Assembly (NCBI GenBank): GCA_964414675.1
Contig: CAYPYF010000007.1
Span: forward strand, 1-58,457
Source of the DNA: an uncultured Dehalococcoidaceae bacterium
GTDB lineage: Bacteria; Chloroflexota; Dehalococcoidia; UBA2979
Length of the DNA: 58,457 nt
Direction of reading: 5' to 3'
The notes beneath the pieces are model-generated. The model searched no databases and was not told where the DNA came from. It saw nothing but the letters and a program-made list of their open reading frames with translations. The translations under genes were made by a program, and so were the position numbers. Of the stretch, positions 9,374 to 42,175 are shown in pieces (within the stretch, counting starts at the first letter, position 1; the number at the start of each line of letters is the position of its first letter).

Positions 9374-10141
9374 CTAGCGCCCGAACGCGAGTGCGAGTTC
9401 GGGAGTCCGCGAGAACTCGGCCGCTTCCGTCCGGCGGAACGTCTCGACTGGGAGCCGCGCCAGGCGGTACCCGACGCCCCACTCGCTGACCAGGTACTGC
9501 GGGCTCTTGGGGTTGTCCTCGAGCTTCTGCCGCAGGTAGCCGGCGTAGACTCGGAGGTACTGCACGTCGTTCAGGTATTCCTCGCCCCACACCGTGGTGA
9601 GGAGGAAGCGGTGCGGTACGGTCTGGCCGACCTGGCTGGCGAGGGCGTCCAGGAAGCGATATTCGGTGTTCGAGAGGGACACCGGGACGCCGTGCTTCTT
9701 CACCGACCGCGCGTCGCGGTCGATGGTCAACGCCCCGGTCTCAACGACTCGCAGCGCCGCGGGGCGGGTGGCGACCCGCTGGTACCGACGTACCGCAGCG
9801 TGCACACGTGCGAGGAGCTCAACCGCCGCGCAGGACTTCGTGATGACGTCGTCCGCGCCGGCGTCCAGGGCCCGCACGATGTCCGCCGAGTCGTCGGCAT
9901 CGTCGACCAGTCCCACGATCGGGACATCGCAAGCCGCGCGAAGGATCCGGATCAGCTCAAGCCCCCCGACACCGCCAGCATCGAGGTCCACGAGCGCCAG
10001 GTCCGGGCGTTCCTCGTATGTCGTGCGAAGCGCCGAAACGCTGTCTGTCGCCTCGGCCACATCGAATCCATCGGTCTGGAGGATGCGCGCCACCCGTGCC
10101 CGGATGTCGTCCCGCATCTCGATTACTGCAACCAGTGCCAT
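9374..10141 (-). CDS. OmpR/KdpE-like winged-helix response regulator, atypical receiver
   Basis: Receiver plus wHTH (YLRVYAGYLRQKLE...EWGVGYRL). The switch Thr is replaced (IVGLV) and KP is KS. Confidence 0.88.
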   Translation of the reverse strand: MALVAVIEMRDDIRARVARILQTDGFDVAEATDSVSALRTTYEERPDLALVDLDAGGVGGLELIRILRAACDVPIVGLVDDADDSADIVRALDAGADDVITKSCAAVELLARVHAAVRRYQRVATRPAALRVVETGALTIDRDARSVKKHGVPVSLSNTEYRFLDALASQVGQTVPHRFLLTTVWGEEYLNDVQYLRVYAGYLRQKLEDNPKSPQYLVSEWGVGYRLARLPVETFRRTEAAEFSRTPELALAFGR

Positions 10142-10692
10142 GCCCGCCTCCTGGTTTGTCTACGTTCCGATCAATCGATCAGAACTCAATCAGAAGATGG
10201 AAGGAACCTCCGGTTTTGTTTCGCATCACTATCTCTGGGTGGCTACCCGAATGAAATCGTCAGAAAACGTCGTCGAGTGCACCTCGCCGACCATCCATCG
10301 CCGTCCCTGAGGCGACGCGCCACTGATCGGGACAGCGCGAGGCCGTCGATCGGTCAGATCCGTTGCAGCCTAACGAATCTTTGCGTTTTCTCTTGAGCGG
10401 GCGCATATTCGCCAAGCGCAGGGCCCTCATCATGAGTGGGTGAAGATCAACCGTGATCGCCAGCCTGAGGGCCATCCTCATCGAGACGCTCGAGTCGCGC
10501 AGCGACCGGGCCTGACCGGCGCCGCCGCCCTGCTGGACTCCGTCGCACGGGCCGAACTCCGAGGCCGGCAAGAGCGCGTCCGGCAGCACCTGAAGCTGGC
10601 GATGCGTCCACGAGCCCAGGCCTGAGTCCACGTACCTCCGGAGGAGGGCGTGGGGTCTGATCCGGCGACGGACAGCGGGCCGCCCTCAAGCC

Positions 10693-12522
10693 CTACTTCC
10701 CGCGGGAATTGCCCTTCCCACCGCCTTCGTTGCCGTGCCCGACACCGTTATTGCCCGCCCCCGCGACGTTGTTGACCTGAGTTCCGCCATTGCTCGCCGC
10801 GGAGGCGGCGGCACCGTTGCCATTCCCGTTTCCGTTGTTGCCGTTGCCGTTGTTGCCGTTGCCGTTGTTGCCGTTGTTCCCGTTCCCGGGGAGTACGGCG
10901 CTTCCCGTGGCCGTGCTGGCCAGGCTGTTCTGGGACATGACCGGGATCGAGCCAGCGGCCGCTTTGGCGGCACCAGTTTCCGTGGCTCGACCGCGCGCGA
11001 TGCCAGCGCCCTGTGCCTTCACGGCGGCATCCGTGGACCCGTTTCCGGGCGCGTGTGACGGCGAGACATCGGCTCGCCCCTGCTTGAGCTGGCCAGGTGC
11101 CGAGTTCCTGCCGTTGCCGGACGTGCCCCCCGTGCCCGAGGCGTTGCTCGCGGGAGCTGCGCCCGAACCCGAGGCATTCTGAGCATGGACCGCAGGGCCT
11201 GTCGCGGCAGGCACCTCAGACATACCGGCGAGCGGCTGGGCTCCCGGGCTGTCCGACTCGGAGGGGGTTTCCACGGCGTCCTGTGACTCCGGGAGCTCCG
11301 AGGCGAGGCCCGCGGTCGTGACAAGTTCGTCTGCAACCGAAGGCGAGGGAATGTCGGCGAGGCGCTGGTCAGCGGCGAGCGCTGCTGGGGGAGTCGCGGT
11401 CGGTCGTGCGTCGAGTACGGCCTCGTGCGTGGATGGCCCGATCACATCGGCCGAGGCGTACGTCGCTGCCAGCGGTTCGGTCACGTGAGGGGCACGGTCG
11501 ACCGGGAGCATGGCGCCACCCGCGATCGTCGTCGTCGCGATCAGGGTGACGACGACGGCCGAGATGCCTGCGCTGGACGCCGACGTCGCAGCCATGGTGG
11601 CCACAGCGGCGCCACCTGCGGTTGTCGCCCCGGCGACGGTCGTCGCGCCTGCGGCGCCTCCGCCTGCACTGCCCCCGAGGCCGACGAGGCCCAACACTCG
11701 CTGCGCGGCTTCCGCGAGGAATCCAAGGAGTCCGCCGCCGGTGAGGCCGGGCATCGCGAGGCCACCCCAGTTGCGGTAGACGGCCTGGCCAGCCTGCATC
11801 GTCACGAACCGCTCGTTGCATTCGCCGCAGCCCTTGATGTGGGCGCGCACGTCTCGCGCGGTGCTCTCGTCGAGCTCTGCGTCGATCAGCTCGCTGATCC
11901 GGAGCGGGTTGGTCCCGCACCGCGACTGCCTGTCCTCGACGAGGTCAAAGATCCGGCGGAACCGGTCGCGGGCACGACACACCCGTACTTCGGCCGCGTT
12001 CCGGGAGATACCCAGCCTGGTCGCGATCTCGTCGTAGTCGAGACGAAGACGCTCGCGCATGTCCAGCACATCGCGGTCGGTCTGGGACAGCGAGCCGAGT
12101 GCTTCGCAGATCTTCCGTCGGTTGTCGCGGGAGAGCGTGTAGGCCTCGGGCGTCGGTTCGCTCAGGTCCTCGAACTCCTCGACTTCATCGTCCTCGTAGG
12201 TGTGGAAGGTCCGGACGTGGGCGCCTTGCTTCGAACGGCCCGCGACGAAGGTGAGGGCGGAGTTCCGGGCGATGCTCTTCAGCCAGGGCCGGAAGCGGTG
12301 GACATCGCGCAGCGAGTCCAACCGGGAGAACGCCCGGATCCACGTCTCCTGCTCGACGTCGCTCGCGTCGTCCGAGTCCGTCACGAAGCGGCGGACCAGG
12401 CGGCGCACCGTTTCGCCGTACTCGCCCATGAGCTCGCTGAACGCTTCGTCGTCGCCGGCACGAGCGCGGGCGACGAGGACGGGCTCCATTTCCGACGGTG
12501 AGAAGCGGTACGCGACAACCAT
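10693..12522 (-). CDS. ECF sigma factor fused to zinc-binding anti-sigma (HxxxCxxC) domain, hydrophobic/TM segment and Gly/Asn-rich tail
   Basis: Region 2 (DVEQETWIRAF...FRPWLKSIARN) and region 4 (LDYDEIATRLGISRNAAEVRVCRAR), then HIKGCGEC, hydrophobic stretch and GNGNN repeats. Start at ATG 12522 (GGAG RBS) or 12576. Confidence 0.88.
   Translation of the reverse strand: MVVAYRFSPSEMEPVLVARARAGDDEAFSELMGEYGETVRRLVRRFVTDSDDASDVEQETWIRAFSRLDSLRDVHRFRPWLKSIARNSALTFVAGRSKQGAHVRTFHTYEDDEVEEFEDLSEPTPEAYTLSRDNRRKICEALGSLSQTDRDVLDMRERLRLDYDEIATRLGISRNAAEVRVCRARDRFRRIFDLVEDRQSRCGTNPLRISELIDAELDESTARDVRAHIKGCGECNERFVTMQAGQAVYRNWGGLAMPGLTGGGLLGFLAEAAQRVLGLVGLGGSAGGGAAGATTVAGATTAGGAAVATMAATSASSAGISAVVVTLIATTTIAGGAMLPVDRAPHVTEPLAATYASADVIGPSTHEAVLDARPTATPPAALAADQRLADIPSPSVADELVTTAGLASELPESQDAVETPSESDSPGAQPLAGMSEVPAATGPAVHAQNASGSGAAPASNASGTGGTSGNGRNSAPGQLKQGRADVSPSHAPGNGSTDAAVKAQGAGIARGRATETGAAKAAAGSIPVMSQNSLASTATGSAVLPGNGNNGNNGNGNNGNGNNGNGNGNGAAASAASNGGTQVNNVAGAGNNGVGHGNEGGGKGNSRGK
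10813..10887. repeat. Gly/Asn codon microsatellite (GCCGTT/GTT units) in the ECF tail
   Basis: Tandem GTTGCCGTTGCCGTT-type units encoding GNGNNGNNGNGNNGNGNNGNG. Confidence 0.85.
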
Positions 12523-12850
12523 GCTGTGCTCCGGGTCCCCATTCGGGGACTGGCCGCCCGGATCGCTGCGCTCCATCCGGAGTCGCTACCCAGCCACACT
12601 ACTGAGGGACACCCCTCTCCTCGCTTAGCGCTAACCCTGATCTTTGTGCTCCGCTTCCTTAGGGGAGCAATGAGAAGTCTTTCGAGAAGTACGACGCCCG
12701 AAATTCCGGCCTCGATGTGGGCCACCAAATGAGGCGGCGTCAGTCGGGTAAACAGAAGAATCAGGGTGAACCCCTACGACGGCGCTGTAAGCAATGGCCT
12801 CGGCGGCCGTCTAAGCACCTACACGCGTAACACGTGAACAGGAGCACACC

Positions 12851-13057
12851 ATGACGCCAGCCCTCTCCATGCAACTCGCCACCGAACTTCGCGACACGAT
12901 CCTCCAGGACCTCGTCGCCGTCAGCATGATGGTGAAGTTCGCCCAGGCGAAGCCCGAGACGAGCGACAAGCAGGTCCTGCAGAAGGCCGAGTCGATCCTG
13001 CGGACGGACCTGGACCAGCTCCGGCTGGTGATCTCGCGCCTCGGGCCGCCAGCCTAG
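12851..13057 (+). CDS. Stand-alone HisKA_3-like dimerisation (DHp) microprotein lacking the phospho-His
   Basis: AGGAG RBS. LATELRDTILQDL...LRLVISRLGP aligns with the HisKA_3 pattern IARELHD..Q.L...R.li..LrP, with H replaced by R. Confidence 0.65.
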   Translation: MTPALSMQLATELRDTILQDLVAVSMMVKFAQAKPETSDKQVLQKAESILRTDLDQLRLVISRLGPPA

Positions 13058-13120
13058 TCGTCGCGATGCTGTCCACCGACGCACCGTCCGAGGTGCACCA
13101 GGACCGTACGGGATCTGACC

Positions 13121-13894
13121 ATGACCGCCCTTCCACTCGTCCTCATCGCAGAGCCTGACCAGGCCGCCCGGATCGGGTTGTCTCGCGCCCTCGAGCAGCA
13201 GGGGTACCGGGTCGTCGAGGCCGGCGATGGCCCGTACGCCGTGCGCCAGGCGTTCAGCACGTCACCTGATGCGGTCATCCTCAACCTGTCGCTGCCACTC
13301 CTCAGCGGACTGGAGTTGGTGAAGTTGCTCCGCGCGGCGTCCGACATGGCGATCATCACGGTGACCGACAGCCCCTCCAGCCAGCTCGCGATCCGCGTGC
13401 TGGACTCCGGCGCGGACGACTACCTCCCGGCGAACATCCCACCGAGGGAGATCGTCGCCCGGATCCAGTCCGCGCTGCGGCGGGTCACCAGACAGGCGTC
13501 CATCGCGATCGCCGCAACCCCTGCGTACTCGGACAGTGCGGTGGTGCGGACCGGTGACCTGGAGATCGACCTGGACCACTACTCCGTGCGGAAGAATGGC
13601 GCCGAGCTGCAGATGACCCGTCTGGAGCATCTGCTGCTGCGAGCCCTCGCGCGGCGGATGGGCCAGGTGGCGCCGCACCGCTACCTGATGACCGAGGTCT
13701 GGGGCTCCGAGTACCTGGACGACACGCATTACTTGCGCGGTTATGTCGCTTCGCTCCGAAACAAGCTCGAGGCAGACCCCTCGCGCCCGCGGTTGCTCCT
13801 GACCGAGTGGGGCGTCGGCTACCGCCTGGAAGCGCTCCCCGTGGAGACGGAGGTCGCGCCGACCCGCGAGCTCGTCGAGGCTGCCAGCGCCTAG
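13121..13894 (+). CDS. OmpR/KdpE-like response regulator with pseudo-receiver (phospho-Asp replaced by Asn)
   Basis: PDAVILNLSLP (N at the Asp site), Lys absent (YLPAN). Intact wHTH HYLRGYVASLRNKLE...EWGVGYRL. Confidence 0.88.
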   Translation: MTALPLVLIAEPDQAARIGLSRALEQQGYRVVEAGDGPYAVRQAFSTSPDAVILNLSLPLLSGLELVKLLRAASDMAIITVTDSPSSQLAIRVLDSGADDYLPANIPPREIVARIQSALRRVTRQASIAIAATPAYSDSAVVRTGDLEIDLDHYSVRKNGAELQMTRLEHLLLRALARRMGQVAPHRYLMTEVWGSEYLDDTHYLRGYVASLRNKLEADPSRPRLLLTEWGVGYRLEALPVETEVAPTRELVEAASA

Positions 13895-14079
13895 GCGGCG
13901 CCGGCCTGCCGCGCCGCTCCTCGGGCGGTGACGAGCAGCATCGCGGAGCTGGTGATCGGCGTCGCCACAGCGTCCAGAAGACGCGCGCTGGTGGCGAAGG
14001 AGTCCGCTACGGCCTCGAGGTCGTCCTCGGTACCGGGGAAGGCGATGAGGTTGCGGAGCGGACGGGCGCGGTTCTCCAT
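13891..14079 (-). CDS. Small hypothetical protein
   Basis: 62-aa ORF filling the gap, with its stop overlapping the regulator stop (CTAG). No clear RBS. Confidence 0.3.
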   Translation of the reverse strand: MENRARPLRNLIAFPGTEDDLEAVADSFATSARLLDAVATPITSSAMLLVTARGAARQAGAA

Positions 14080-14207
14080 GCGGCGATCATCGGCAGCCTG
14101 GACGCGGACTTAAGGGGTCCGCCGCAGAATTCTCCTGATCCTGGCCCCTGCTGTCCCCGGTCGCCCAGTCCCCCGTGCGGGCAGACCCTTGGGGGCGGCG
14201 GGCGAAA

Positions 14208-14235
14208 GAGAGGGGGCGCGTACGCGCCCCCTCTC
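14208..14235. terminator. Perfect GC-rich palindrome, probable terminator of the DUF11 gene
   Basis: GAGAGGGGGCGCG-TA-CGCGCCCCCTCTC, 48 nt past stop 14283. Confidence 0.7.
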
Positions 14236-14282
14236 CTCAAGACTCATGCGTAAGTCAGGCTCATCCAATAAGAGGGACGCCG

Positions 14283-16256
14283 CTAGGCTTGGCCCGACTT
14301 CTTGGACTTGTCGACGGTGCAGCCCAGTTCGTTCTGCTCCGCCAGCGTGTTGTGGACATTGTTGATCTGGGTGGCGTTGCCACTGTCGATCGCTGCCTTC
14401 ACCATCGCCTTGATCTCAGCCTCGGTGTACTTGTAGTCCACCTCGCCGCTCACGGCGTTCAGGAGTGCCGCAACCGCGTGCCGAGCAAGCGCGTTGACGT
14501 CACCACCGTTGGCCTCGACGGCCTGGAGCATGGTCGGGTTCGCGTACGTAGTCTTGCCGGTGCCCCGAAGGGTCACGTCGACGTCGAACACGGCCTCGAA
14601 CGACTGACCAGGCGTGTAGCCGATCCAGTACTGGAAGTGCTGGGACTGGCGCCAGAAGCCCGGGGTACAACCCGCGAAGTCGTCACACACAACGGTGATC
14701 GAGGCCGTGGACGAGTTGTTGTTCGGGTTGGTGTCACCGAGAGCGGTCACGGTCGCCGTGTTCTCAATAACTCCACACCCGTCCACAGCGGTCGTCTTGG
14801 AGACCGTCACCTGGAACGTGGCGCCATTCGCCAGCGTGCCAATGTCACAGTTCAGCGTGTCGTTCGCCCCGGGGGTGATGGTGCAGCTGGCGCTGTTCTC
14901 AGACCAGCCGGTGCCCGGCAGGTTGTCGGTCAGCGTCACACCAGTCGCCGTACCCGGGCCGTTGCCCGTCACCGTGATGAGGAATGCAGCCACGTCACCG
15001 GCGTTGATCGGGCTGTTGTCAGCCGTCTTCAGTACCGACACGTCCGGGCAGTTCACCACGATGCTCGCGGACGAGCTGTTGTTCTGCGAGTTGGTGTCCC
15101 CAGTGGCGGTCACCGTGGCCGTGTTCGGCAGCGTGCCACACTGAGCGTGGGTCGTCGTCTTGGAGACCGTCACCTGGAACGTGGCGCCATTCGCCAGCGT
15201 GCCAATGTCACAGTTCAGCGTGTCGTTCGCCCCGGGGGTGATGGTGCAGCTGGCGCTGTCCTCAGACCAGCCGGTGCCCGGCAGGTTGTCGGTCAGCGTC
15301 ACACCAGTCGCGGTACCCGGGCCGTTGCCCGTCACCGTGATCAGGAATGCGGCCACGTCGCCGGCGTTGATCGGACTGTTGTCAGCCGTCTTCAGCACCG
15401 ACACGTCCGGGCAGTTCACCACGATGGAGGCATCGTCGGTGTTGTTGTCCAGCTTGGTCTGGTCCTCGTTCGTCGCGGCGACCGTCGCGGTGTTCGGCAG
15501 GGTGCCGCACTGCGCGGTAGTCGTCGTCTTCGAGACAGTGACTGAGGCCGTCGCACCCTGGACCATGTCGCCGAAGGTGCAGTTGAGTGCATCGTTCGCG
15601 GCCGGGGTGATCGTGCAGCTCGCGCTGTTCTCGGACCAGCCCGTGCCCACCAGCGTGTCGGAGAGCGTCACGCCCGTGGCAGTGCCGGGGCCGAGGTTCT
15701 CCACCTCGATGGTGTACGACGCGACGTCGCCAGCGTTGATCGGGCTGTTGTCAGCCGTCTTCGTCACCTTGACGTCCGGGAACTGGGCGTTGACCGAGGT
15801 CTGCTTCTGGCCCGTCGAGGGGCTGCTGAAGCCGTCCTGTAGCGTGCCATTCCACGACACCGTCGCTGTCCACGTGTTGCCGACGAGGTGTGCAGCGTTC
15901 GCTACGTACACTTCGTCCTCGACGAACGCGACAGCGGACGGGTTCGGGTAGTTGAACGGTCCGTAGTTGTAGACCGAGCCGTCCGGCAATGTCAGCGTCA
16001 GCGTCCGGCCGGTGATGTCGCACCCGTCCGCAGACGCCGGGTTCCCAGCCGAGACGGTGAACGTGATCGGATCGCCGATCGCTGCTGTTGCAGACGACCG
16101 CGCGATGTTCACCACGCTGTTGTCCGCGTTACAGCCGTCTGGAGAACCGACCGCGAAGGCTGTCCGCGGAGTCACCAGCGTCATAGCCAGCATGGCGAGA
16201 ATCGCCGCGACGACGATCAGAGCCGTCTTCTGCTTACCAAATGCTGAACTCAGCAT
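14283..16256 (-). CDS. Secreted DUF11-type Ig-like repeat surface protein with C-terminal GCTPGFW domain
   Basis: GAGGAG RBS before ATG 16256, signal peptide (...RTAFA), three DUF11 repeats (V.KTAD...V.YTI.V.N.GPGTATGV...NTATV), C-terminal GCTPGFWRQ...ARHAVAALLNA. No LPxTG. Confidence 0.85.
   Translation of the reverse strand: MLSSAFGKQKTALIVVAAILAMLAMTLVTPRTAFAVGSPDGCNADNSVVNIARSSATAAIGDPITFTVSAGNPASADGCDITGRTLTLTLPDGSVYNYGPFNYPNPSAVAFVEDEVYVANAAHLVGNTWTATVSWNGTLQDGFSSPSTGQKQTSVNAQFPDVKVTKTADNSPINAGDVASYTIEVENLGPGTATGVTLSDTLVGTGWSENSASCTITPAANDALNCTFGDMVQGATASVTVSKTTTTAQCGTLPNTATVAATNEDQTKLDNNTDDASIVVNCPDVSVLKTADNSPINAGDVAAFLITVTGNGPGTATGVTLTDNLPGTGWSEDSASCTITPGANDTLNCDIGTLANGATFQVTVSKTTTHAQCGTLPNTATVTATGDTNSQNNSSSASIVVNCPDVSVLKTADNSPINAGDVAAFLITVTGNGPGTATGVTLTDNLPGTGWSENSASCTITPGANDTLNCDIGTLANGATFQVTVSKTTAVDGCGVIENTATVTALGDTNPNNNSSTASITVVCDDFAGCTPGFWRQSQHFQYWIGYTPGQSFEAVFDVDVTLRGTGKTTYANPTMLQAVEANGGDVNALARHAVAALLNAVSGEVDYKYTEAEIKAMVKAAIDSGNATQINNVHNTLAEQNELGCTVDKSKKSGQA
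14695..15423. repeat. Near-identical 363-bp tandem duplication (two DUF11 domains)
   Basis: Matching anchors GTTCACCACG end at 15060 and 15423 (offset 363 nt = 121 aa). The translated units are almost identical. Confidence 0.9.
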
Positions 16257-16525
16257 ACGTATCTCCTCATGATGTTCCTGGTGGGCGAGGCGACCAAAGC
16301 GCCTCACGTTTCGGGCTAACGCCCGCCACACACCCCCTCTCGCTGGCATCCATGCCGTCGCTAGCCTCGAAGGGCGCATAGCCCCGAGGGTTGATTACCG
16401 ACCTCTGAACGACGGTAGGAGGCGGACGGCGTCGACTCGCTAAGGAGTCATAAGACGCGCGACAGACAAAGAAAGAGGGCGGCCGTTCCTCTTACGGAAT
16501 CCTGAGGTGCGGGGACGGCGAATAG

Positions 16526-16559
16526 CAGCAGGCCCGCCGTGGGTACGGCGGGCCTGCTG
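16526..16559. terminator. 15-bp perfect inverted repeat, probable terminator
   Basis: CAGCAGGCCCGCCGT-GGGT-ACGGCGGGCCTGCTG, downstream of the 16612 gene. Confidence 0.75.
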
Positions 16560-16611
16560 GGTGGAGCCTCGGGCGGGAGGATCCCGAGGGCAGCACCGGG
16601 GCGGGGCGCTC

Positions 16612-16833
16612 CTAGTAGTAGGGGCTCGCGTAGACCTGTCGGAGCGAACTGAGGGACCTCCACCCGATCATCGCGAAGAAGCCTGCGACGGGGATCATGA
16701 AGGCGCCGGCGGGGTCAAACTGCAGGGTGAGCCACACCGCCCAGAGGACGGTCATCGCGGACGCGAGCAGGAACTTCCACGCCACATAGGCGTAGAAGCC
16801 GACGTAGACGATCCGCTGCATCTTCGAGTACAC
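16612..16833 (-). CDS. 73-aa membrane protein of unknown family (paralog 1)
   Basis: Hydrophobic, AWK.L...DPAGA.MIP.AGF...PYY. Gapless paralog at 18598..18819. Confidence 0.8.
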   Translation of the reverse strand: MYSKMQRIVYVGFYAYVAWKFLLASAMTVLWAVWLTLQFDPAGAFMIPVAGFFAMIGWRSLSSLRQVYASPYY

Positions 16834-16851
16834 GGGGCGTCTCCAGATCGG

Positions 16852-17391
16852 CTAGTTGGCGGTCGCGTCCGCGGGAGCGCCCTCGACGGGGACGAGGATC
16901 ACCTGCCCCACGAAGAGCGCGTTCGGGTCGGCCAGGTCGTTCAACTCGATGAGCGCAGGGACCGTGGTGTCATACCGCAGGGCGATCTGCTCGAGTGTGT
17001 CGCCCGCCTCGACGGTGTGTGTCGCGGGGGCAGGTGTCATGGAGAGGACTGGCCGCCCGGTCTCGACTGGAGCGATCGATGCGGGGACAAGGATGGGGGC
17101 AGTGACATCCGCGACGGCCGCAACTGGCTCCGCGCTCCCTCGAAGGGCGGTGACACCGGCCACCGCCACGGCGACGGAGAGCACGAACACCGCGAGGATC
17201 AGCGTGAGGCTGCGACCCTGCCGAGGAGGAGGGGAGATGTCCTCGGCGGGGTCACTGCCTGTAGTGGAAGTCGCCGCCTGGGCGAGGGCGACTTCTCGGT
17301 CACGTTCCGCGAGGGCGCGGAGGTATTCGGTCGGGTCCCGGTGCGCGGGGACGACAACCGACTCTGTGGCGCTGGGCGACGTCGTGGTCAC
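16852..17391 (-). CDS. Single-TM protein with C-terminal LysM domain
   Basis: TM LTLILAVFVLSVAVAVAG. HTVEAGDTLEQIALRYDTTVPALIELNDLADPNALFVGQVILVP. Confidence 0.88.
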   Translation of the reverse strand: MTTTSPSATESVVVPAHRDPTEYLRALAERDREVALAQAATSTTGSDPAEDISPPPRQGRSLTLILAVFVLSVAVAVAGVTALRGSAEPVAAVADVTAPILVPASIAPVETGRPVLSMTPAPATHTVEAGDTLEQIALRYDTTVPALIELNDLADPNALFVGQVILVPVEGAPADATAN

Positions 17392-17603
17392 GTGCGGCTT
17401 CCTCGTCCCATCCGCGACAAGGGTGCCCCATGCGAAGTCAGAGTTTTATAAGAGAATCATCGGACTTCCTCAGAAGTTCACGCCGACATCAGATGGGACG
17501 CCTCGCGACATCAGTTGGAGTGCGGACCAGAGTTCTCAGCGGAGATAAGAGCCACGTCCCCGCACGCTTTACGAGGGCGGATCACGGCAGCATGATCGCG
17601 CTC

Positions 17604-17855
17604 ATGGAACGCACATTGCCTGAGGATCCGCTCGACGTGCTGAACGATCTGGTAGCAGTGCTCGACGGATCAGGACTCGATCCGGCGTTGCGTTATGCGC
17701 TGACGGTGATCCTTGTCGCGCAGGAAGTCCGTGGGACCGTCACAGGCCCGTTCCCTCGCCAGTTGCAAGAGCGAGTCAGTGACCTGCTCGATGAGCTGCA
17801 GATCGCGGCGAGTGCCGCCCAGCCGGTACGGCTCGCGCGCCACCGCGTCCCCTAG
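17604..17855 (+). CDS. Small hypothetical helical protein
   Basis: Protein-like composition (DPLDVLNDLVAVLD...VSDLLDELQ). Start at 17592 or 17604, divergent from lysM. Confidence 0.5.
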   Translation: MERTLPEDPLDVLNDLVAVLDGSGLDPALRYALTVILVAQEVRGTVTGPFPRQLQERVSDLLDELQIAASAAQPVRLARHRVP

Positions 17856-18066
17856 CCGCCCTCGGCCGCTCCGATCGCCATCGTTCCGTCATCGAATGGC
17901 CCTGACGCCCTCGCATCCGCGCGTCCGAGCGCTCGTCGCCGCCGTCGTTCATGTTCAACCGCAAGATCAGGGACAACCCCTATGGGGAACCAGCGGCCGA
18001 TGGCGCACGTTGTGCATGTGGTGAGGCCATGGAGCTGCACCCGGCGCGGCATCGAGGAGCGACGAC

Positions 18067-18386: not shown

Positions 18387-18408
18387 TCGCCGCGATACCG
18401 ATACAAAC

Positions 18409-36000: not shown

Positions 36001-36854
36001 GAGTTCGGGGCGTCGCCCTGGACCACCTTGGTGACGGAGACGTCACCACAGTTGGTCACCGGCACGCCGGAGCTGTTGAGGTCGATGCGGCCGCCGTTGA
36101 GCACGTCCTGGAGGGACGCCTGGTTGCTCTGCGAAGCCGCAGTCATGATCCACAACTGCGTCGCGTTCAGACAGGTGCCAGCATCCAGGACACCAGCGGC
36201 GGTCAGGTGGATGCCAGCCTCGACGAAGGTGTTCGCCGGCATCGGCAGGCCGTCCGGACCGATGGCGCCCTGCGCGTTGGAGATCGAGGTCGCGACGGCC
36301 GAGGTCAACCCGAGGTCGATCCACGTGGCGCCGTTGTACCGCATGACGGTGGGGACAAAGGTGCTCCCTCCGTTCACGAAGTCCATGATCACCATCATGT
36401 CGCCCTCGTTGAGGACGTTCGCGTCACGGTGCAGGGCGAAGATGGCGGAGGTGTTGCCGCCCGGGTCAGTCCCCTGCTGGCTCGGCATGCGCTGCGCGGC
36501 CAGGTAGAGGTACAGGTCGTCGCCATCCGCGATCGACGTAAGCCAGGCGCCGGTCAGGTCCGCCTTGTTTGGTGCGTTCTGATCCGCCCTCGTGGGGTAC
36601 GGGAAGACTCCGAAGAGCGACGTACCCGGCTCAATGATGGTCTCCTTCACGCCATGGGCGTCCGGGAAGAAGAGGGGGGAAGCATTTCCCCAGTCGTAGG
36701 CCTGAAGGCCGCCGTCCAGGGGATAGTTCCCGTCCAGCTCAAACTGATCTGCGGGGTCACCCGCCCTCACAGTGCTCACGATGGCAAACGCCAACGCGAG
36801 CACGAGGACGGGCAGAATGAGATAGGGCTTGAGCCCCACCTTCCTGCGAGTCAT
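33069..36854 (-). CDS. Large LPxTG-anchored Ig-like repeat surface protein (six tandem DUF11/DUF7507-like repeats plus a DUF11 domain)
   Basis: Signal peptide, ELDGN head domain, six ~112-aa repeats, P/PT linker, DUF11, then LPPTG + TM + NRERFR. GGAAGG RBS before ATG 36854. Confidence 0.88.
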   Translation of the reverse strand: MTRRKVGLKPYLILPVLVLALAFAIVSTVRAGDPADQFELDGNYPLDGGLQAYDWGNASPLFFPDAHGVKETIIEPGTSLFGVFPYPTRADQNAPNKADLTGAWLTSIADGDDLYLYLAAQRMPSQQGTDPGGNTSAIFALHRDANVLNEGDMMVIMDFVNGGSTFVPTVMRYNGATWIDLGLTSAVATSISNAQGAIGPDGLPMPANTFVEAGIHLTAAGVLDAGTCLNATQLWIMTAASQSNQASLQDVLNGGRIDLNSSGVPVTNCGDVSVTKVVQGDAPNSTWEISITPNVDNFTSEVIGHGQTTTDVQINPNTPVTVTETSVQGLEFTASWSCSDGTSGDGASFQVTAGPFEHIDCTITNVVDELPAVTVTKTAGSATVPQTGGNVTYTFVVTNSGGVPVEITGLDDDQFGALAGDADCAVGTSLAAGASCEFDATFPLAPAAPGATHTNVFTATVEDDQENPASDTDDATVTYTDILPEVSVTKVASPDEVLETGGDVTFTFTVTNTGTVPATIISLQDDKLGTLSGDAGCEVGTVLAAGASCAFEETVAIPSGSLGQSHVNVFTATVEDDDGNEDSDSAEETVTYTDVPPMVNVTKTANPTSIPQTGGDVTFTYVVENNGDVSATITLLTDDKFGALAGDADCHVGTVLAAGASCQFAAVFAVPAGPVDGSHVNVFTATLTDGDQNEDSDTDDAEVSYSNVLPAITVTKTANPTSVAETGGNVTFTFTVANTGNKTVTILTMEDDKFGAVGSGLCQPGTVLSPGASCSYLPLLPVPAGVAGGSHVNTFTATAVDADQNEVSDSDDAVVTYTDVLPQVTVSKSANPNTVVQSGDDVTFTFTVTNSGTVSAEIISLVDDTFGALVGDADCEVGTVLGVGASCGFEATFAIPAGLPGDTHVNVFTATVEDIDGNEASDDDDATVTYTDVPATITMTKTPSPSSVTAPGANVTYTVVITNTSDVDTVVITSLVDDKFGDLDGKGTCSVDQTLDPGESYNCAFTGNVSGSAGTTHVNVVTADGYSMDNEQPVSADATATVTITATPPPPPPPPGPTPTPTPTPTPPVEVLGSTAQIDKVLTSADPAVVGEQVTFRVRLTITGDTDVTQVVLVDTFENEYLEFVSSSGLCTLVANFPDAAHSSVGCEVGTVSPGTADAPGTEVVEYNLVFRALKSTLPDRTVNEVTATLDLDGDGPGAPAQIGPAADDVEIIEIIGVQLPPTGDGSTQDSRNSLLILAVLFGAVSLGSVGAVAWNRERFR

Positions 36855-37024
36855 CCGTTGCACCTTCCACGCGAAGGCGGAGCCGCGCGCACTCGCGCGC
36901 GGTATTCGCCTTCGCGTGGTTCATGGCTTTGACGTGCATCGGCGGTTGCGTATGAACCGATGTGAGTGCGTCAGGGAGTGCAGGAGGAAGTAAGAGAGTT
37001 CAGACGTTCCAGACCCGGCAGAGC

Positions 37025-37174
37025 TCAGTCTTCGACCGGAGCCTTCGGCTGGGCAGCCCTGAACGAGGCCAGAAGGTTCACGACGTCCATGAGTTCCCGC
37101 ATCCGGCGAGGGACGTCCGCACGCTCGAGCGGCAGCCCGGCCAGGACGCCGTCCACCAGGGCATCAAGGCGCAT
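37025..37174 (-). CDS. Small hypothetical protein (49 aa, or 71 aa from the ATGA-coupled start at 37240)
   Basis: GAGGA RBS before ATG 37174. Amphipathic helices RLDALVDGVLAG...RELMDVVNLLAS. Confidence 0.5.
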   Translation of the reverse strand: MRLDALVDGVLAGLPLERADVPRRMRELMDVVNLLASFRAAQPKAPVED

Positions 37175-37236
37175 GGCGTCCTCGACGTTGCGGTGTCGCA
37201 CTCCCGACCGAGGCACCCGACATCCCGTGGTCGAGG

Positions 37237-37971
37237 TCATGAGCGGACGGCCCCCACGTCCAGGACCGCCCGCACGACGACGCGCTGCTCATAGTCCCGG
37301 GTGGTGCGGTTGAATGTGCCACCACAGGTGATCAGCGTCAGCGTTGCGGCGCCCTCACGAGAGCCAACGATCGATGTGACATCGGCCGTGGCGAGGTCCA
37401 CCAACTCGACCGATTGCACGAGGTAGGTGAAGTGTTCGCCGGCGGGCGAGGTGACGGTGATCTCCGTCCCTGGCATCACCCCGTCCAGTCGGCTGAAGAC
37501 GCCCTGCTCGCCTCGCCAGTTCACGTGGGCCGCCAGGACAGCGTTCCCCTCCCGGCCGGGGACCGCGGTGAAGTCGTACCAGGCGACCGTCCGATGATCT
37601 GCGGGAACCTCCATGACTCCGGTCGGACTGAGTCCGAAGGTCGCCGTCGCCGCACGGACAGAGATGTCCGGGATCTCCAGCAGCCAACCCGCGGCATCCC
37701 CGGGCTCGATCGCCGGGGGCGTCGGGAGGACGGGGGTCGCCGTCGGGGAGGGCCGGTCAGCAGCAGCCTCGCCCGTAGTGGCCGTAGCGCCCCGCGTATC
37801 GGCCTCGACGGAGGCGACGAGCGGCGCCTCCACCTGCGTCGTCGGGACGGCGATCCGAAGTCCCGGCTCGGTCGGGGAGCCTCCACAGGCGACCACTGAG
37901 CAGATGGCAAAGGTCAGGGCGCCCCAGCGGACACCCCGTAACCACCCAATCCGACGCGCGACTCGAAACAT
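37237..37971 (-). CDS. Class F sortase, probably a lipoprotein
   Basis: VLAAHVNW (His), LTLITCGG (Cys), YEQRVVVRA (Arg), VAWY...PG..GNAVL class F signature, VVACGG lipobox-like. Confidence 0.9.
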   Translation of the reverse strand: MFRVARRIGWLRGVRWGALTFAICSVVACGGSPTEPGLRIAVPTTQVEAPLVASVEADTRGATATTGEAAADRPSPTATPVLPTPPAIEPGDAAGWLLEIPDISVRAATATFGLSPTGVMEVPADHRTVAWYDFTAVPGREGNAVLAAHVNWRGEQGVFSRLDGVMPGTEITVTSPAGEHFTYLVQSVELVDLATADVTSIVGSREGAATLTLITCGGTFNRTTRDYEQRVVVRAVLDVGAVRS

Positions 37972-38103
37972 CAGGGTTTTCCCCACCTCAAGCGCGGGGA
38001 TCCCCTATCAGGGCTCAACCCCCATCCGACCCAGACTCGCTGCATGTCAACGATGCCTACCCCCTTCATGGGGACGTCCAGCGGGCTTGTTTCATCAAAA
38101 CGG

Positions 38104-39036
38104 ATGCGCACCGCTCTTACGGTTGGCGTCGCGTCCGTTGCACTCGGGCTCGTCGGGACGGGAACCTACGCGCTCGCCAGCCACGACTCGGCGCCAGTCG
38201 AGGCTCCGGTGAGGGCACCGGCGCGTGTCGTGATCGACTCGCCGTCCTCGATCGAGATCGACTCCAGCGAGCGTGCGCTGAGCAGCCACCCCGCGATCGG
38301 CGATCGCCCGGCTTCGCCCGCCACTGACCTCAACGCCGGCCTCGTGGCGGGCAGCGAGGTCGCGGCGCTCGATGCAGCTCGCATCCGGTCGTCCGCCCCC
38401 GCGATCATCGCAACACAGTCGGCAGAGCTCGAGGCCGCGCCGGCCGCCATCCGCACGGCCACGCCGGCCGCCGCCGGCCCCGCGAGACAGGTCGCCTCCG
38501 CAGCGCCGGCCGAACGCAACGCATCCGGAGGCCCTGCGGCTGCCACACCCGCGACCACCGGCCCTCCAGCACCGGTCGTGGCGGCAACCCCCGCCCCCGT
38601 CGTGGCGGTAACGCCTGCACCTGCGGCCAGCAGCACCCTGAACGCTCGAGGACAGGCGTTCCTCGCCTCGTTGAACGAGGAGCGAGTAGCGGCGGGGCTC
38701 CCTGCGTTCACGGCAGCAGCCGACCTGAACGCCGTGGCCAGCACTCGCGCGTGGGACATGGTGTCGAACGGGTACTTCGCACATGTCAGCCCGACGGGGA
38801 CCTCGTGGCTCACGGTCCTGCAGGACCAGGGTGTGCGCGTCCGAGGCGGCGGCGAGAACCTCGCCCGTGTCTCGGGGGATCCTCAGCGGTCCGTGGGCAT
38901 CGCCGTCGAGCACCTCATGGAGAGCCCCACGCACCGTGCGAACATCCTGGCGCAGGCCTTCGACGAGGTTGGCATCGCAGCGGTTACGACCGACGACGGC
39001 GTGACGGTCTTCGTGACGATCTTCGCAACGCGCTAG
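38104..39036 (+). CDS. Second secreted CAP (SCP-like) domain protein
   Basis: Hydrophobic N-terminus, Pro/Ala linker. LNEERVAAGL, YFAHVSPTG, GENLA, MESPTHRANIL..FDEVGI. Confidence 0.88.
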   Translation: MRTALTVGVASVALGLVGTGTYALASHDSAPVEAPVRAPARVVIDSPSSIEIDSSERALSSHPAIGDRPASPATDLNAGLVAGSEVAALDAARIRSSAPAIIATQSAELEAAPAAIRTATPAAAGPARQVASAAPAERNASGGPAAATPATTGPPAPVVAATPAPVVAVTPAPAASSTLNARGQAFLASLNEERVAAGLPAFTAAADLNAVASTRAWDMVSNGYFAHVSPTGTSWLTVLQDQGVRVRGGGENLARVSGDPQRSVGIAVEHLMESPTHRANILAQAFDEVGIAAVTTDDGVTVFVTIFATR

Positions 39037-39197
39037 GACGCCCCTCCGCGGTCTGGTGCGAGAACCTCAGCCACCGCCCGACGAGCCAACCGCCGCGACC
39101 GTCGAGGTCGATCGGACGTTGTGTAGTTCTGGGCGGGCGCGCGAGCAGGGCCCCATACGCAGCAGGGCAGTACGGGACCGGAGATCAGGTGTGGTCT

Positions 39198-39587
39198 CTA
39201 GACGCCTGCGGTGTAGCGGAGAGGCAGGGCGCGACGGTGCGTGGCCCGTTCAACGAACGCGGCGACGAGGTCCGCGGGGGCGGGCCAGGCGATGACGTAC
39301 TCGAACCCGTACTCCTCGATCAGTCGCGCACGTTCCGCTGTGCTCAGCGGGACGTGCGAGAGGAGCACCTTCGGCGCTGACACGCGTTCGAGGTCTTCGC
39401 GGAAGAAATCGAGGAGAGCGGCGTCATAGAAGAGGACGACGACATCAGCCCAGGCGATCGACGCACGATCGTGCACGACGTGATCGAGGCGGTCAGACCA
39501 GGCGCTGAGTCGACGCTCGCGGAGGGCGCGGACAACTGCCGATGCGGAGCCCTCGGGGCCAGCTACCAGGACGTTGTAGTCGCGCAT
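39198..39587 (-). CDS. Highly degenerate stand-alone receiver-like protein
   Basis: GAGGAG RBS. Beta/alpha pattern VLVAG...ADVVVLF...PKVLLS...YGFEYVIAWP. No Asp or Lys at the canonical sites. Confidence 0.55.
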   Translation of the reverse strand: MRDYNVLVAGPEGSASAVVRALRERRLSAWSDRLDHVVHDRASIAWADVVVLFYDAALLDFFREDLERVSAPKVLLSHVPLSTAERARLIEEYGFEYVIAWPAPADLVAAFVERATHRRALPLRYTAGV

Positions 39588-39778
39588 CACATCTCCTCTG
39601 AGGAGAGTGCGCTTCGTCGCCGGGGCACGGGATCGGGGAACACCCCTATCTTGCGCTGCTTCGCGCGAGAGACCGTTTTCTTATGGTGTTGCGAGACGCC
39701 GAAACCTCCGATGATTCCAGTGGCTGTTAAAATCGGCCCCCAACTGAGGTAGACCCTCTTCGTTCGAGGTATGGATCA

Positions 39779-40498
39779 ATGCTCCCCAGCACCGAAGATC
39801 CGGCGACGACATCCGTCCCTGTCCGTGTGGGTGTGAGCTCTCCGGACGACGACCTGGTGCGTATTCTTGCAGAGGAGTTCGAGGCGGAGGAGGTGTCCCT
39901 GCGGACCGCCCTCGCGGCGCCGGAACAGCTCCACCTGGATGTCCTGCTGATCGACGCTCGACATCGGAGCCAGCTCGTCCCCACGGCACGGCTCGTCACG
40001 GAGGGCACGTTCTCCGTAGTGGTGATGGCGCGCCCTCAGGACTCGGTCGAGGCGATGAAGTACCTGGACGTGGGCGCGCTGGACGTGATCTGGAGCGGCG
40101 CCGCAGCATCCGAGATCGGCGCCCGTATCCGTTCCGCAGCCCGTTACGCCGAATCGATCGAGGTCGAGTGGTTGACCGTCGGAGACCTCGCGATCTCCAC
40201 GAAGCGACACGAGATCAGGCGCGCCGGACAGAGCATCCGGCTGACGCCCACGGAATTTCGCCTGGTGGAAGCGCTGGTGGAGGCGGCCGGTGAGACGGTC
40301 ACCCACCGGAGCATCACCTACCAGGTGTGGGGGACCACGGACGACGCCACGCGGCACCAGTTGCGCGTGTACGTCCGCCAGCTCCGCGAGAAGATCGAAC
40401 CCGACCCGGCGCACCCGACCGTGATCGTGACCGAGCCGGGAGTGGGCTACCGCCTCGACGGGTTGGGTCGTCCCGGGAGCCGCCGCGTCGCGAGTTAG
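39779..40498 (+). CDS. OmpR/KdpE-like response regulator, degenerate receiver
   Basis: wHTH LRVYVRQLREKIEPDPAHP.VIVTEPGVGYRL. The receiver lacks the acidic pocket, Thr and Lys. Confidence 0.88.
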   Translation: MLPSTEDPATTSVPVRVGVSSPDDDLVRILAEEFEAEEVSLRTALAAPEQLHLDVLLIDARHRSQLVPTARLVTEGTFSVVVMARPQDSVEAMKYLDVGALDVIWSGAAASEIGARIRSAARYAESIEVEWLTVGDLAISTKRHEIRRAGQSIRLTPTEFRLVEALVEAAGETVTHRSITYQVWGTTDDATRHQLRVYVRQLREKIEPDPAHPTVIVTEPGVGYRLDGLGRPGSRRVAS

Positions 40499-40542
40499 TC
40501 CTGTGTCACGGCGTGAGCCTGAGCCCGACGGCAGGTCTTGCG

Positions 40543-41289
40543 CTACTCGGCATTGACCGCGAGCGGTTCGCGGCTCCCACCCGAGTCGACGATGGGCAGG
40601 CGCGCCAGTCGGTAGCCGACGCCCCAGTCGTTCAGGATGTACTGCGGCTGCGCCGGCTGATCCTCGAACTTGGCACGCAGGTATCCGACATAGACACGCA
40701 GGTAGTGCGTGTCGTTGACGTACTGATCTCCCCAGACCGTGCTGAGCAGGTAGCGGTGGGGGGCGGTCTCCCCGAGTCGGGATCCGAGCGCCTCGAGCAG
40801 GCGGTACTCAGTCCGCGGGAGCTGGACGGGACGCCCTCGGTGGCGAACGACCTGGGCGTCGCGGTCGATTTCTATCGCGCCGGTGCGGATCAGCTGTCGC
40901 GCGCCCCCGAAGGCCGTGTCTGCGCGACGTTCGTAGCGTCGCACGGCGGCGCGGAGGCGGGCACGAAGCTCGGCGGACCCGGTCGCCTTCGGGACGACAT
41001 CGTCTGCGCCGGCATCAAGTGCGCGGACGACCGCGTCGGAGTCGTGGTTCGCGAGGAGCGCCACGATCGGGACATCGCATGCAGCGCGCAGGATCCGGAT
41101 GAGTTCGGCGCCGCCGACGTCGCCCGAGCCCAGGTCGATCACCGCGGCGTCCGGGCGGGCATCGAATGCGATCCGCAGACCCTCAAGCCCATCCTCGGCA
41201 GACAGGACTTCGAAGCCGTCTGCCCGAAGGAAGCGCTCCAGTCGTAGTCGTGACTGCTCGTCGCCGTCTACCAGTGCGATCGTCGCCAT
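40543..41289 (-). CDS. OmpR/KdpE-like response regulator, atypical receiver
   Basis: Paralog of 9374..10141 (shared LIRILRAACDVPIV). wHTH HYLRVYVGYLRAKFE...DWGVGYRL. Switch Thr absent. Confidence 0.9.
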   Translation of the reverse strand: MATIALVDGDEQSRLRLERFLRADGFEVLSAEDGLEGLRIAFDARPDAAVIDLGSGDVGGAELIRILRAACDVPIVALLANHDSDAVVRALDAGADDVVPKATGSAELRARLRAAVRRYERRADTAFGGARQLIRTGAIEIDRDAQVVRHRGRPVQLPRTEYRLLEALGSRLGETAPHRYLLSTVWGDQYVNDTHYLRVYVGYLRAKFEDQPAQPQYILNDWGVGYRLARLPIVDSGGSREPLAVNAE

Positions 41290-41404
41290 GAGTCCCTCGA
41301 GCCGTGAACATTGCCGCTACCCAGTGAATCGGCCCGAGCGATGCATTTGTTACGGAGGATCCGGACGGCACGAAAGGACGGGATGCGCCGGGCGCGGACT
41401 GACC

Positions 41405-42175
41405 TCAGCTGGAGGGGCTAGCACCGTCGCGGAGCCGGGCGACGCGCCCGCCCTGTTCCGAAGACGATCCGTCATCGACGGCATCGAGCACGACGAGGCG
41501 GTAGCCGACGCCCCACTCGCTTCGGATGTATCGGGGCGCGTGCGGATCGTCTTCCAGCTTCGAGCGCAGGTACCCGACATACACACGCAAGTAGTGCACA
41601 TCGTCGACGTACTCGTTGCCCCAGACCGCGGACAGGAGGAACCGATGGGGTGCGACCTGGCCCGCACGCGACGCGAGTGCGTCCAGCAGGCGGTACTCGG
41701 TGCGTGAGAGAGAGACCCGGACCCCCGCCTTGGTCACAGTCTGTGCAGAGCGGTCGATGGCAATGTCCCCCGTCTGGACGACGGGTGGGGACACGGCGGC
41801 GGCCTGAGTGACGCGCTGGCTCCGACGGATCGCAGCCTTCACCCGGGCGAGGATCTCGGACGGTGGTGTCGAGGGGCGTATGACATCGTCGGCGCCGAGG
41901 TCGAGCACCGCGACGCCGCGCGCCTGGTCCGCGATGCCGAGCACCGCCACGATCGCGAGGGGCGACGCCGCGCGGAGCATGCGCACCAGCTCCAGGCCGT
42001 CGACCTCATCGATGGTCAGGTCGATGAGGACGGCGTCGGGCGAGGCCTGAAACACGGCGCGAAACGCCTCGAGCCCGTCGACCGCCACCAGGCTCGCGAG
42101 CCCGTCGTCGTGCAGCAGTGAGACGAGGTTCTCACGGAGGCGGGCGTCCGAGCTCGCAACCAGGACGAGCGTCAT
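41405..42175 (-). CDS. OmpR/KdpE-like response regulator, degenerate receiver
   Basis: VLVASSD (acidic pocket lost), VIRPS (Lys lost). wHTH HYLRVYVGYLRSKLE...EWGVGYRL. Confidence 0.9.
   Translation of the reverse strand: MTLVLVASSDARLRENLVSLLHDDGLASLVAVDGLEAFRAVFQASPDAVLIDLTIDEVDGLELVRMLRAASPLAIVAVLGIADQARGVAVLDLGADDVIRPSTPPSEILARVKAAIRRSQRVTQAAAVSPPVVQTGDIAIDRSAQTVTKAGVRVSLSRTEYRLLDALASRAGQVAPHRFLLSAVWGNEYVDDVHYLRVYVGYLRSKLEDDPHAPRYIRSEWGVGYRLVVLDAVDDGSSSEQGGRVARLRDGASPSS

Follow-up and report, generated by a model that had tools for sequence, protein, structure and literature searches.

Five regulators with degenerate receiver domains in a pilus and adhesin island of an uncultured Dehalococcoidaceae bacterium

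How can a response regulator act when the receiver that should be phosphorylated has lost its active site, and which genes would it control? The question is raised by five genes on one contig of an uncultured Dehalococcoidaceae bacterium (GenBank CAYPYF010000007.1; 58,457 nucleotides). The contig, C7, was analyzed whole and is called the window; it belongs to an assembly of 3.0 Mb in 187 contigs that is 88.6% complete. A housekeeping carboxyltransferase has its closest named relatives, at 72-73% identity, in SAR202 and Dehalococcoidia metagenome-assembled genomes, and membership of Chloroflexota, class Dehalococcoidia, is accordingly most likely. The five products, named ARR_A to ARR_E and referred to below as A to E, are encoded within a 44-kb island of pilus and adhesin genes. 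The reading that we favor, at a probability of roughly 0.6, is that they are phosphorylation-independent regulators dedicated to this island. An initial annotation had called them KdpE-like, had considered each to be broken at a different receiver residue, and had proposed combinatorial control by homodimers and heterodimers. All five open reading frames that it claimed are present (Table 1).

All receiver-containing OmpR-family proteins of the genome were aligned with KdpE and scored at positions E8, D9, D52, S79, Y98, K101 and P102. Eleven other regulators in the genome carry the complete canonical set of residues. The Mg-binding aspartate (D9 of KdpE) is lost in all five window proteins, the serine or threonine is lost in four, including E, with only B retaining a threonine, the switch tyrosine is replaced by valine in A, C, D and E, and the Lys-Pro pair (K101/P102) is intact in none. 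Asp52 is present in every protein but B, which alone among the five belongs to the aspartate-less subset of receivers, and Lys101 is found in A and D. The number of active-site residues missing, out of five, is two in A, three in B, four in C, two in D and four in E. The acidic pocket of A and D is broken in addition to the missing threonine, because D9 is lost. A complete phospho-acceptor site (acidic pair, Asp, Ser/Thr and Lys) is found in 0 of 5, versus 26 of 26 canonical KdpE proteins. A pseudo-receiver is defined by the absence of one or more of five conserved residues of the active site (PMC12632262), and under that definition A to E are all pseudo-receivers. Every defect listed in the initial annotation is present, but the list did not bring out that D9 is lost from all five, and it omitted the loss of threonine from E (41405) and the valine for tyrosine in four. 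Its description of each gene as broken at a different residue implies independent breakage; the data instead point to a shared core of defects and to ancestral loss. The best explanation of these residues is that the receivers would no longer be able to bind Mg2+ or perform the phospho-switch.

The phylogeny against KdpE that the initial annotation had suggested places A, B, D and E apart from the canonical proteins. The tree holds 114 sequences, 26 of which, the E. coli protein among them, form the canonical KdpE clade. One clade of 73 sequences takes in A, B, D and E and is separated from canonical KdpE with 99% support in the Shimodaira-Hasegawa-like approximate likelihood ratio test (SH-aLRT), and C lies in a separate, degenerate clade of five members on a long branch. 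The full active-site quintet is found in 0 of the 73 clade members, against 26 of 26 canonical KdpE sequences. The initial annotation had named canonical residues in the orthologs as grounds for refutation; the orthologs lack them too, which supports its view of the window proteins as atypical, orphan response regulators. Only 5 of the 73 have an acidic residue at position 9 and only 50 have Asp52, and the phospho-site of the B orthologs varies among N, S and E. The clade has a marker of its own, since the wing tryptophan of the motif (E/D)WGxGYR is present in 72 of 73 members versus 0 of 26 canonical KdpE proteins. Every window gene has its own orthologs elsewhere in the tree, which contradicts the idea that the paralog set is a recent expansion within this genome; A to E are old paralogs, not recent duplicates. 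The simplest history is a single ancient loss of the active site in the ancestor of the clade, followed by drift at the freed positions, with the domain retained for another job.

The profile search behind this sampling covered 5.8 billion proteins. About 70 clusters scored above the plateau of canonical KdpE; nearly all of them are metagenomic, and the named members of the family come only from metagenome-assembled genomes labeled 'Dehalococcoidia bacterium'. A profile search of genome contigs, made with an alignment of the five proteins, returned canonical KdpE sequences of at most 45% identity as its best 80 matches and no relatives among the matches listed, because the pattern permitted either W or P.

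Which parts of the receiver have been retained can be read from the conservation of its columns. Those without constraint in the clade are D9, E10, the G54-L55-P56-D57 loop, S79-A80-R81, K87 and T100-K101-P102. The near-invariant ones are L91, G94, A95, D96, D97, E107, A110, R111 and R117, all in the α4-β5-α5 region, and R39, F42, L63, A69, A70, V88 and R118 are new residues specific to the clade. The ratio of nonsynonymous to synonymous substitution rates (dN/dS) of the receiver halves, measured against the relatives in locus L103, is 0.086 for E, 0.044 for D and 0.052 for C, as low as in the DNA-binding halves, and these values show the signature of pseudo-receivers kept by purifying selection. 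The α4-β5-α5 face is the dimerization site of OmpR-family receivers and of most structurally solved pseudo-receivers (PMC12632262). Because the conserved residues fall in this region, dimerization is the most likely job retained by the pseudo-receivers. Two adjacent relatives just outside the tryptophan clade (locus L098, G028:C347, 9215-10801) keep the acidic pair and Lys-Pro and have Gly at the phospho-Asp position, and one of the two also retains Ser and Tyr; the pair may represent an intermediate stage in receiver decay.

The layout of the OmpR/PhoB family, a receiver-fold N-terminus followed by a Trans_reg_C winged helix, is found in all five proteins. Pfam recognizes Response_reg and Trans_reg_C in A, B, D and E, and Trans_reg_C alone in C. 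The N-terminal domain of C is homologous to the other four receivers (hhalign profile comparison, 100% probability, whole length aligned), and its profile alignment to A, B, D and E contains a deletion of 11 residues. The KdpE-like label was apt in that the closest solved structure is E. coli KdpE (E 1.8e-42). A to E are not KdpE, however, and four membership tests agree on this point: they score 94-152 bits with the KdpE equivalog model NF007820 (NCBIfam), whose cut-off is 325; their phospho-site is incomplete; they have no KdpD/kdpFABC partner; and their position in the tree is outside the canonical clade. The MtrA and YycF models match them about as well as the KdpE model does. GlnR_1st (Pfam PF21695) matches D with 24.6 bits and E with 21.5 bits, both below the gathering threshold of 27 bits, and does not match A, B or C. 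The five proteins are best regarded as atypical OmpR-type regulators that make up a new family of KdpE descent. Automatic pipelines annotate many members of the family as 'KdpE', which is functionally wrong because the genome has no kdp system.

The initial annotation had described the DNA-binding domains as very similar, and this holds for A, D and E, which are mutually 61-68% identical and have almost identical recognition helices. It does not extend to B (52-57% identity to A, D and E) or to C (38-43%). The (E/D)WGVGYRL terminus that it reported is seen in A, B, D and E, with EPGVGYRL in C instead. R193, R200 and T215 are needed for DNA binding by KdpE (PMC3264566). The two arginines are retained in 5 of 5; the residue at position 215 is S, T or N, and T217 of the wing is replaced by Trp.

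The absence of kdp genes and of a sensor near the regulators, noted initially for the neighborhood, was borne out and could be widened. KdpA (PF03814) and KdpD (PF02702) were not found in the whole assembly, while the search did recover the control genomes, and contig C7 holds none of the 20 HATPase_c matches of the genome. The canonical regulators on contigs C1, C3, C9, C29, C40, C42, C59 and C65, those that could be checked, each adjoin a kinase match. The genome encodes 20 Trans_reg_C proteins in 3.0 Mb; 8 are atypical, and 5 of these are on the 58-kb contig C7. This clustering is not due to chance. The three further OmpR-family regulators with degenerate receivers are a GlnR-like protein (C81:7896-8117) and an adjacent pair (C1:86723-86947 and C1:87681-87905). 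Together, the loss of the Mg site, the lack of constraint on the active-site columns and the lack of a linked kinase lead us to infer that A to E act independently of phosphorylation.

What the regulators might control is suggested by their surroundings, which the initial annotation had missed: an island with Tad pilus, sortase, adhesin and extracytoplasmic function (ECF) sigma factor genes. This context gives the regulators' likely function. The island also encodes a prepilin peptidase. Its features are listed in Table 1 together with the regulators, the possible partner proteins and the candidate DNA elements described below.

Table 1. Regulators, possible partners, island genes and candidate DNA elements in the window. 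Residues are given in the order of KdpE positions 8, 9, 52, 79, 98, 101 and 102.
Feature	Position	Strand	Remarks
ARR_A, pseudo-receiver + winged helix	9374..10141	-	residues E M D V V K S; EWGVGYRL end; orthologs P0004, P0006 (tree)
ARR_B, aspartate-less pseudo-receiver (Asn at phospho-site) + winged helix	13121..13894	+	residues E P N T Y A N; orthologs in four congeneric genomes, ~60% identity
ARR_C, most degenerate receiver + winged helix	39779..40498	+	residues S P D A V S G; 11-residue deletion; EPGVGYRL end; separate clade
ARR_D, pseudo-receiver + winged helix	40543..41289	-	residues D G D L V K A; DWGVGYRL end; orthologs P0005 (88% in tree; BLASTP 89%) and P0007
ARR_E, pseudo-receiver + winged helix	41405..42175	-	residues S S D L V P S; EWGVGYRL end; orthologs P0020, P0017, P0011 (tree)
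Stand-alone pseudo-receiver	8832..9293	+	'EHSD' replacing acidic pair; 31% identical to ARR_A receiver; 36% homolog in L099 island
68-aa HisKA_3-like helical hairpin (His-less DHp)	12851..13057	+	31.6 bits; ELRD for ELHD, Arg at phospho-His; immediately upstream of ARR_B
130-aa protein, cryptic stand-alone pseudo-receiver (predicted fold)	39198..39590	-	no Pfam or NCBIfam match; adjoins C-type genes
orf42251, conserved	42353..43225	+	divergent from ARR_E; no Pfam match; low-confidence model
Pilus/adhesin island holding the regulators	1..44180	.	gene content
Tad pilus operon 1	155-5890	+	
Tad pilus operon 2	18911-30721	-	includes VWA-FHA, DnaJ-FHA, flp
ECF sigma gene	10693-12576	-	
ECF sigma gene	32163-32801		
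DUF11/CLIPPER adhesin, 698 aa	14283-16379		
DUF11/CLIPPER adhesin, 1264 aa	33069-36863		
LysM protein	16852-17391		
Sortase	37237-37986		
CAP protein	38044-39036		
TCTGAT / TCTGAT direct repeat, 11 bp apart	10170..10200	-	upstream of ARR_A; counted in phasing test
TCTTAT / TCCTTAG (minus strand) + TCTTAC (plus strand)	16440..16500	.	upstream of 698-aa DUF11 adhesin gene
TCTTAT boxes at 17448 and 17545	17440..17555	-	upstream of LysM gene
Three TCTTAY/CTTAC boxes 20-21 bp apart, weaker boxes between	32918..32965	-	upstream of ECF sigma gene; strongest array
TCTGAAC / TCTTAC / TCCTGC phased boxes	36975..37010	-	upstream of 1264-aa CLIPPER/DUF7507 adhesin gene; conserved in L103
TCTTAT box	39679..39684	+	~100 bp upstream of ARR_C; box also upstream of C-type gene in L103 and L099
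TCTTAT then TCTAAC	42228..42245	+	intergenic, ARR_E to orf42251

The association with surface structures recurs outside the window. Orthologs of B lie directly upstream of VWA-FHA, DnaJ-FHA, CpaB, TadZ, TadA, TadB and TadC in four congeners, and one to three family members stand at the edge of a Tad operon in loci L101, L106 and L107. L099 and L103 repeat the module found at 32-43 kb of the window with the gene order conserved: a protein of 270-290 aa with no assigned function, E, (D), C, the 129-aa protein, CAP, sortase, the adhesin of ~1260 aa and ECF sigma. P0005, the ortholog of D, is in the same gene order in L103, and two family members adjoin a sortase gene in genome G012. The distribution of the family is patchy, with a member in only 4 of 11 congeners and few other relatives. 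A survey of 401 genomes of the class with the DNA pattern [E/D]WGxGYR placed this genome highest, with four W-type signatures, the runner-up having three; the survey is noisy, a reversed control giving about as many single matches, and only counts of at least two per genome are meaningful.

Several features of the island stand apart from the regulators. The ECF sigma gene at 10693-12576 encodes a fusion to a zf-HC2 anti-sigma domain with a long Asn/Gly-repeat tail. A gene on the minus strand at ~30810-32160, downstream of the other ECF sigma gene, has an NG- and TP-repeat tail, and its product is probably the anti-sigma factor of the adjoining ECF sigma. The short contig C149 carries DnaJ-FHA, CpaB and TadZ genes, its TadZ being 64% identical to the window copy. 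The window starts within a Tad operon (1-5890), and C149 probably supplies the upstream half that is missing there. A 73-aa gene after the prepilin peptidase gene was noted (window positions 16612-16833 and 18598-18846). L107 has a gene of equal length (73 aa) after its prepilin peptidase gene (9525-9746), a likeness by length alone, and L106 has a 105-aa gene after the peptidase gene.

If the regulators act on this island, its promoters might share a DNA element. In an unbiased count of hexamers, TCTTAT is the top hexamer of the intergenic DNA of the island (8 observed versus 0.5 expected), followed by CTCTTA. Of the generalized form TCTTAY, the genome has 116 copies (0.038 per kb); 14 are in the 44-kb island (0.32 per kb), 12 of these being intergenic, and none is in the 14 kb of housekeeping genes on the same contig. 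Most copies are oriented toward the downstream gene and lie 50-160 bp from its start. The offsets between direct repeats of TCT[T/G]AY peak at 10, 11, 21 and 22 bp, with 15 pairs versus 4.2 expected from other offsets, a number that none of 500 Markov shuffles reached. The array that precedes the ECF sigma gene has conserved counterparts in both L103 and L099, the spacers of the latter having diverged. Related boxes (TTCTTACGGAAATTCACAA; TTTCTACGGACTCCCGACGGAA) in congeners precede B and also lie in the stretch from B to the Tad operon. KdpE binds half-sites TTTATA and TTTACA that have a 5-bp spacer between them (PMC3264566), and the core TTAY and the 11-bp period of the window repeats match these half-sites. 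The phased repeats fit tandem binding by an OmpR-type regulator better than they fit a single ECF promoter; in the OmpR-family architecture a half-site of 6-7 bp recurs in direct orientation about every 10-11 bp. Their assignment as candidate sites of A to E is tentative, and we put it somewhat short of an even chance. A half-site of the type YACRRA, with 10-11 bp between copies, had been derived from the B-VWA spacers of the congeners; it was abandoned for the hexamer count. Elsewhere in the genome, C44:13998-14045 contains three CTTAY copies, spaced at ~20 bp with GTACCAC-like sequence between them, in an array resembling that of the ECF sigma gene, with no island paralog nearby. One TCTTAC copy of the window (30765-30779), between the NG-tail gene and VWA-FHA, is part of a perfect palindrome (CCCTGTCTTACAGGG) and might form a hairpin instead of serving as a binding box.

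Four further products of the island are possible partners of the regulators. The 130-aa protein and the 290-aa accessory protein gave nothing by Pfam (E up to 10), by profile search of the PDB or by hhalign against receivers, and fold prediction alone was informative. The model of the 130-aa protein, with a mean predicted local distance difference test score (pLDDT) of 80.5, has the (βα)5 topology of a receiver and matches the receivers of HP1043, PhoB, CpaE and KdpE at template modeling (TM) scores of ~0.7. The protein is 65% identical to its L099 counterpart and is conserved beside C-type regulators in L099 and L103. This position, together with the predicted fold, suggests a cryptic stand-alone pseudo-receiver, in addition to the one encoded next to ARR_A. 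The pairing of the 68-aa hairpin with a B-type gene recurs in L105, where the hairpin copy is 66% identical. A second His-less HisKA_3 hairpin is encoded at C2:87131-87334. The model of orf42251 (pLDDT 54.6, low confidence) resembles a PAS domain plus a kinase CA domain and matches structures of PAS-histidine kinases and isolated CA domains; no N or G boxes (the ATP-binding motifs) were recognized when the sequence was read by eye, and the product may be a pseudo-kinase.

These features suggest how the system could work. A to E would bind DNA without Asp phosphorylation, as dimers formed either beforehand or on the DNA itself. Their targets would be the KdpE-box-like TCTTAY direct repeats, with a period of 10-11 bp and units of ~21 bp, in the promoters of the ECF sigma gene, the adhesin genes, the LysM gene, ARR_A and ARR_C, and the pilus and adhesin genes would be switched through these sites. 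How active each regulator is would depend on its abundance and on partner proteins rather than on a histidine kinase; the His-less DHp hairpin, the PAS/CA-like protein and both stand-alone pseudo-receivers are candidates for such partners.

Phosphorylation at Asp52 after all, whether canonical, by cross-talk or from a small-molecule donor, and at least in A, C, D and E, the kinase gene lying elsewhere, is an alternative to phosphorylation-independent action. Asp52 in four of the five, Lys101 in A and D, the 20 HATPase_c matches on other contigs and the incompleteness of the assembly would all accommodate it. We nevertheless consider it very improbable, given that the Mg-binding Asp is lost in 5 of 5 and the Ser/Thr and the switch Tyr in 4 of 5 each, that these positions are unconstrained across a clade in which only 50 of 73 members retain even Asp52 and the B orthologs have N, S or E there, and that the checkable canonical regulators of the same genome each adjoin a kinase. 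The loss of so many catalytic residues might also mean that A to E are decaying, non-functional duplicates of a KdpE-like regulator, a notion that has next to no credibility when dN/dS is 0.04-0.10 in both domains, all reading frames are intact and the orthologs and synteny of each paralog are conserved elsewhere; it was rejected on the low dN/dS and the synteny. The TCTTAY repeats pose a different problem, because they might be promoter or operator elements of the island ECF sigma factors or of some other protein, with A to E acting on other targets. The island does have two ECF sigma genes, and the strongest array is upstream of one of them, as expected of an autoregulated ECF promoter. But direct repeats phased at 10-11 and 21 bp, with up to three units in a row, have the layout of OmpR-family sites and not that of a single -35/-10 pair, there is no second conserved block at a fixed promoter-like spacing, and the TTAY core matches the KdpE half-site (PMC3264566), so that we judge this explanation of the repeats unlikely.

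Heterodimer control among A to E, as initially proposed, is plausible from the sequences, and the idea can be extended to a combinatorial network of exchangeable hetero-oligomers, made up of the five regulators, both stand-alone pseudo-receivers and the kinase-derived relics. The pairings would decide which promoters fire, a coincidence detector or titration circuit made from a phospho-dead two-component toolkit. Such a network would be in keeping with the conservation of the α4-β5-α5 region across the paralogs, with the near-identical recognition helices of A, D and E, which should compete for or share sites, with the conservation in synteny of the accessory genes (REC, the 130-aa receiver fold, the 68-aa 'ELRD' protein with the B-type gene in L105, and orf42251) and with the precedent of the BldM/WhiI heterodimer (PMC4125116, as summarized in PMC12632262). 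In many genomes, however, a single family member is found beside the Tad operon, so heteromers are not required for function, and the orf42251 part of the network depends on a low-confidence model. We regard the network as rather doubtful. A bolder version, also unlikely, is that the island holds a complete two-component toolkit gone phospho-dead as a unit, which signals only through exchangeable contacts along the old kinase-receiver and receiver-receiver interfaces and times pili and adhesins in this way; its parts would be the five pseudo-receiver DNA binders, the two stand-alone pseudo-receivers, the DHp hairpin with Arg for His and the PAS protein with a kinase-like domain (a low-confidence model).

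The reading of A to E as phosphorylation-independent regulators dedicated to the island also has observations that weigh against it. Weak phosphorylation is formally possible in A and D, which retain Asp52 and Lys101, and a distant kinase could be missing from an assembly that is 88.6% complete. K87 of the conserved α4 face is lost, and the geometry of the dimer may differ from that of KdpE. The TCTTAY boxes might be the sites of a different factor or part of an ECF-sigma promoter, and the looser YACRRA-type motif from the B-VWA spacers of the congeners is not enriched in the window. The family members in L100 and L104 are away from pilus and sortase genes. Lastly, the locus is present in only three metagenome runs, all of DNA, and in no RNA run.

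What turns pseudo-receivers on and off is recognized as an unsolved question (PMC12632262). The clade described here is a useful natural case, with clear KdpE ancestry, a sharp marker in the wing tryptophan, defined likely targets and a candidate DNA site, and the island supplies co-conserved candidate partners in its stand-alone pseudo-receivers, His-less DHp hairpin and possible pseudo-kinase. The regulators would also give a first handle on the regulation of Tad pili and sortase-anchored adhesins in uncultured Dehalococcoidia-like bacteria.

Comparison with known systems begins with E. coli KdpE (PDB 4KNY/4KFC). A to E share its two-domain layout, its recognition-helix motif HYLR(V/I)Y.G.LR.KLE and the residues R193 and R200, and the candidate half-site TCTTAY with its 11-bp period resembles TTTATA/TTTACA (PMC3264566). 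They differ in having no complete phospho-acceptor site, in scoring far below the equivalog cut-off, in forming a separate clade and in having Trp for T217 of the wing; their genome has no KdpD/kdpFABC, and their context is pili and adhesins, not K+ transport. ChxR of Chlamydia and HP1043/HsrA of Helicobacter are atypical OmpR-family regulators that form dimers on direct repeats without phosphorylation (PMC3960148, PMC8345958). Like A to E, they are orphan genes that combine a degenerate receiver with a winged helix-turn-helix, and HP1043 is among the top structural matches of the model of the 130-aa island protein. Unlike A to E, which form a set of several paralogs tied to one accessory island and come from the KdpE lineage, ChxR and HP1043 are single genes of different evolutionary origin and act as global or essential regulators.

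BldM and WhiI of Streptomyces are orphan atypical regulators whose heterodimer controls a separate set of genes (PMC4125116, as summarized in PMC12632262); they belong to the NarL/FixJ family, and the heterodimer demonstrated there is hypothesized for the OmpR-type A to E. Actinobacterial GlnR is an orphan OmpR-type regulator with a non-canonical pocket, and the GlnR_1st matches of D and E are a weak likeness to it; its nitrogen function and context differ, and this genome has its own GlnR-like gene on C81. CmrT, of the cmrRST operon of Clostridioides difficile, is an OmpR-family pseudo-receiver regulator of cell-surface and motility phenotypes (PMC12548384) that works with a kinase and a canonical regulator of the same operon, whereas neither is linked to A to E. 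Regulators of this kind are already known in ChxR, HP1043, GlnR and CmrT; the new points here are that a whole clade, marked by a wing tryptophan, has cleanly lost the active site, that its members are tightly associated with Tad and sortase islands, and that relics apparently derived from kinases are conserved alongside.

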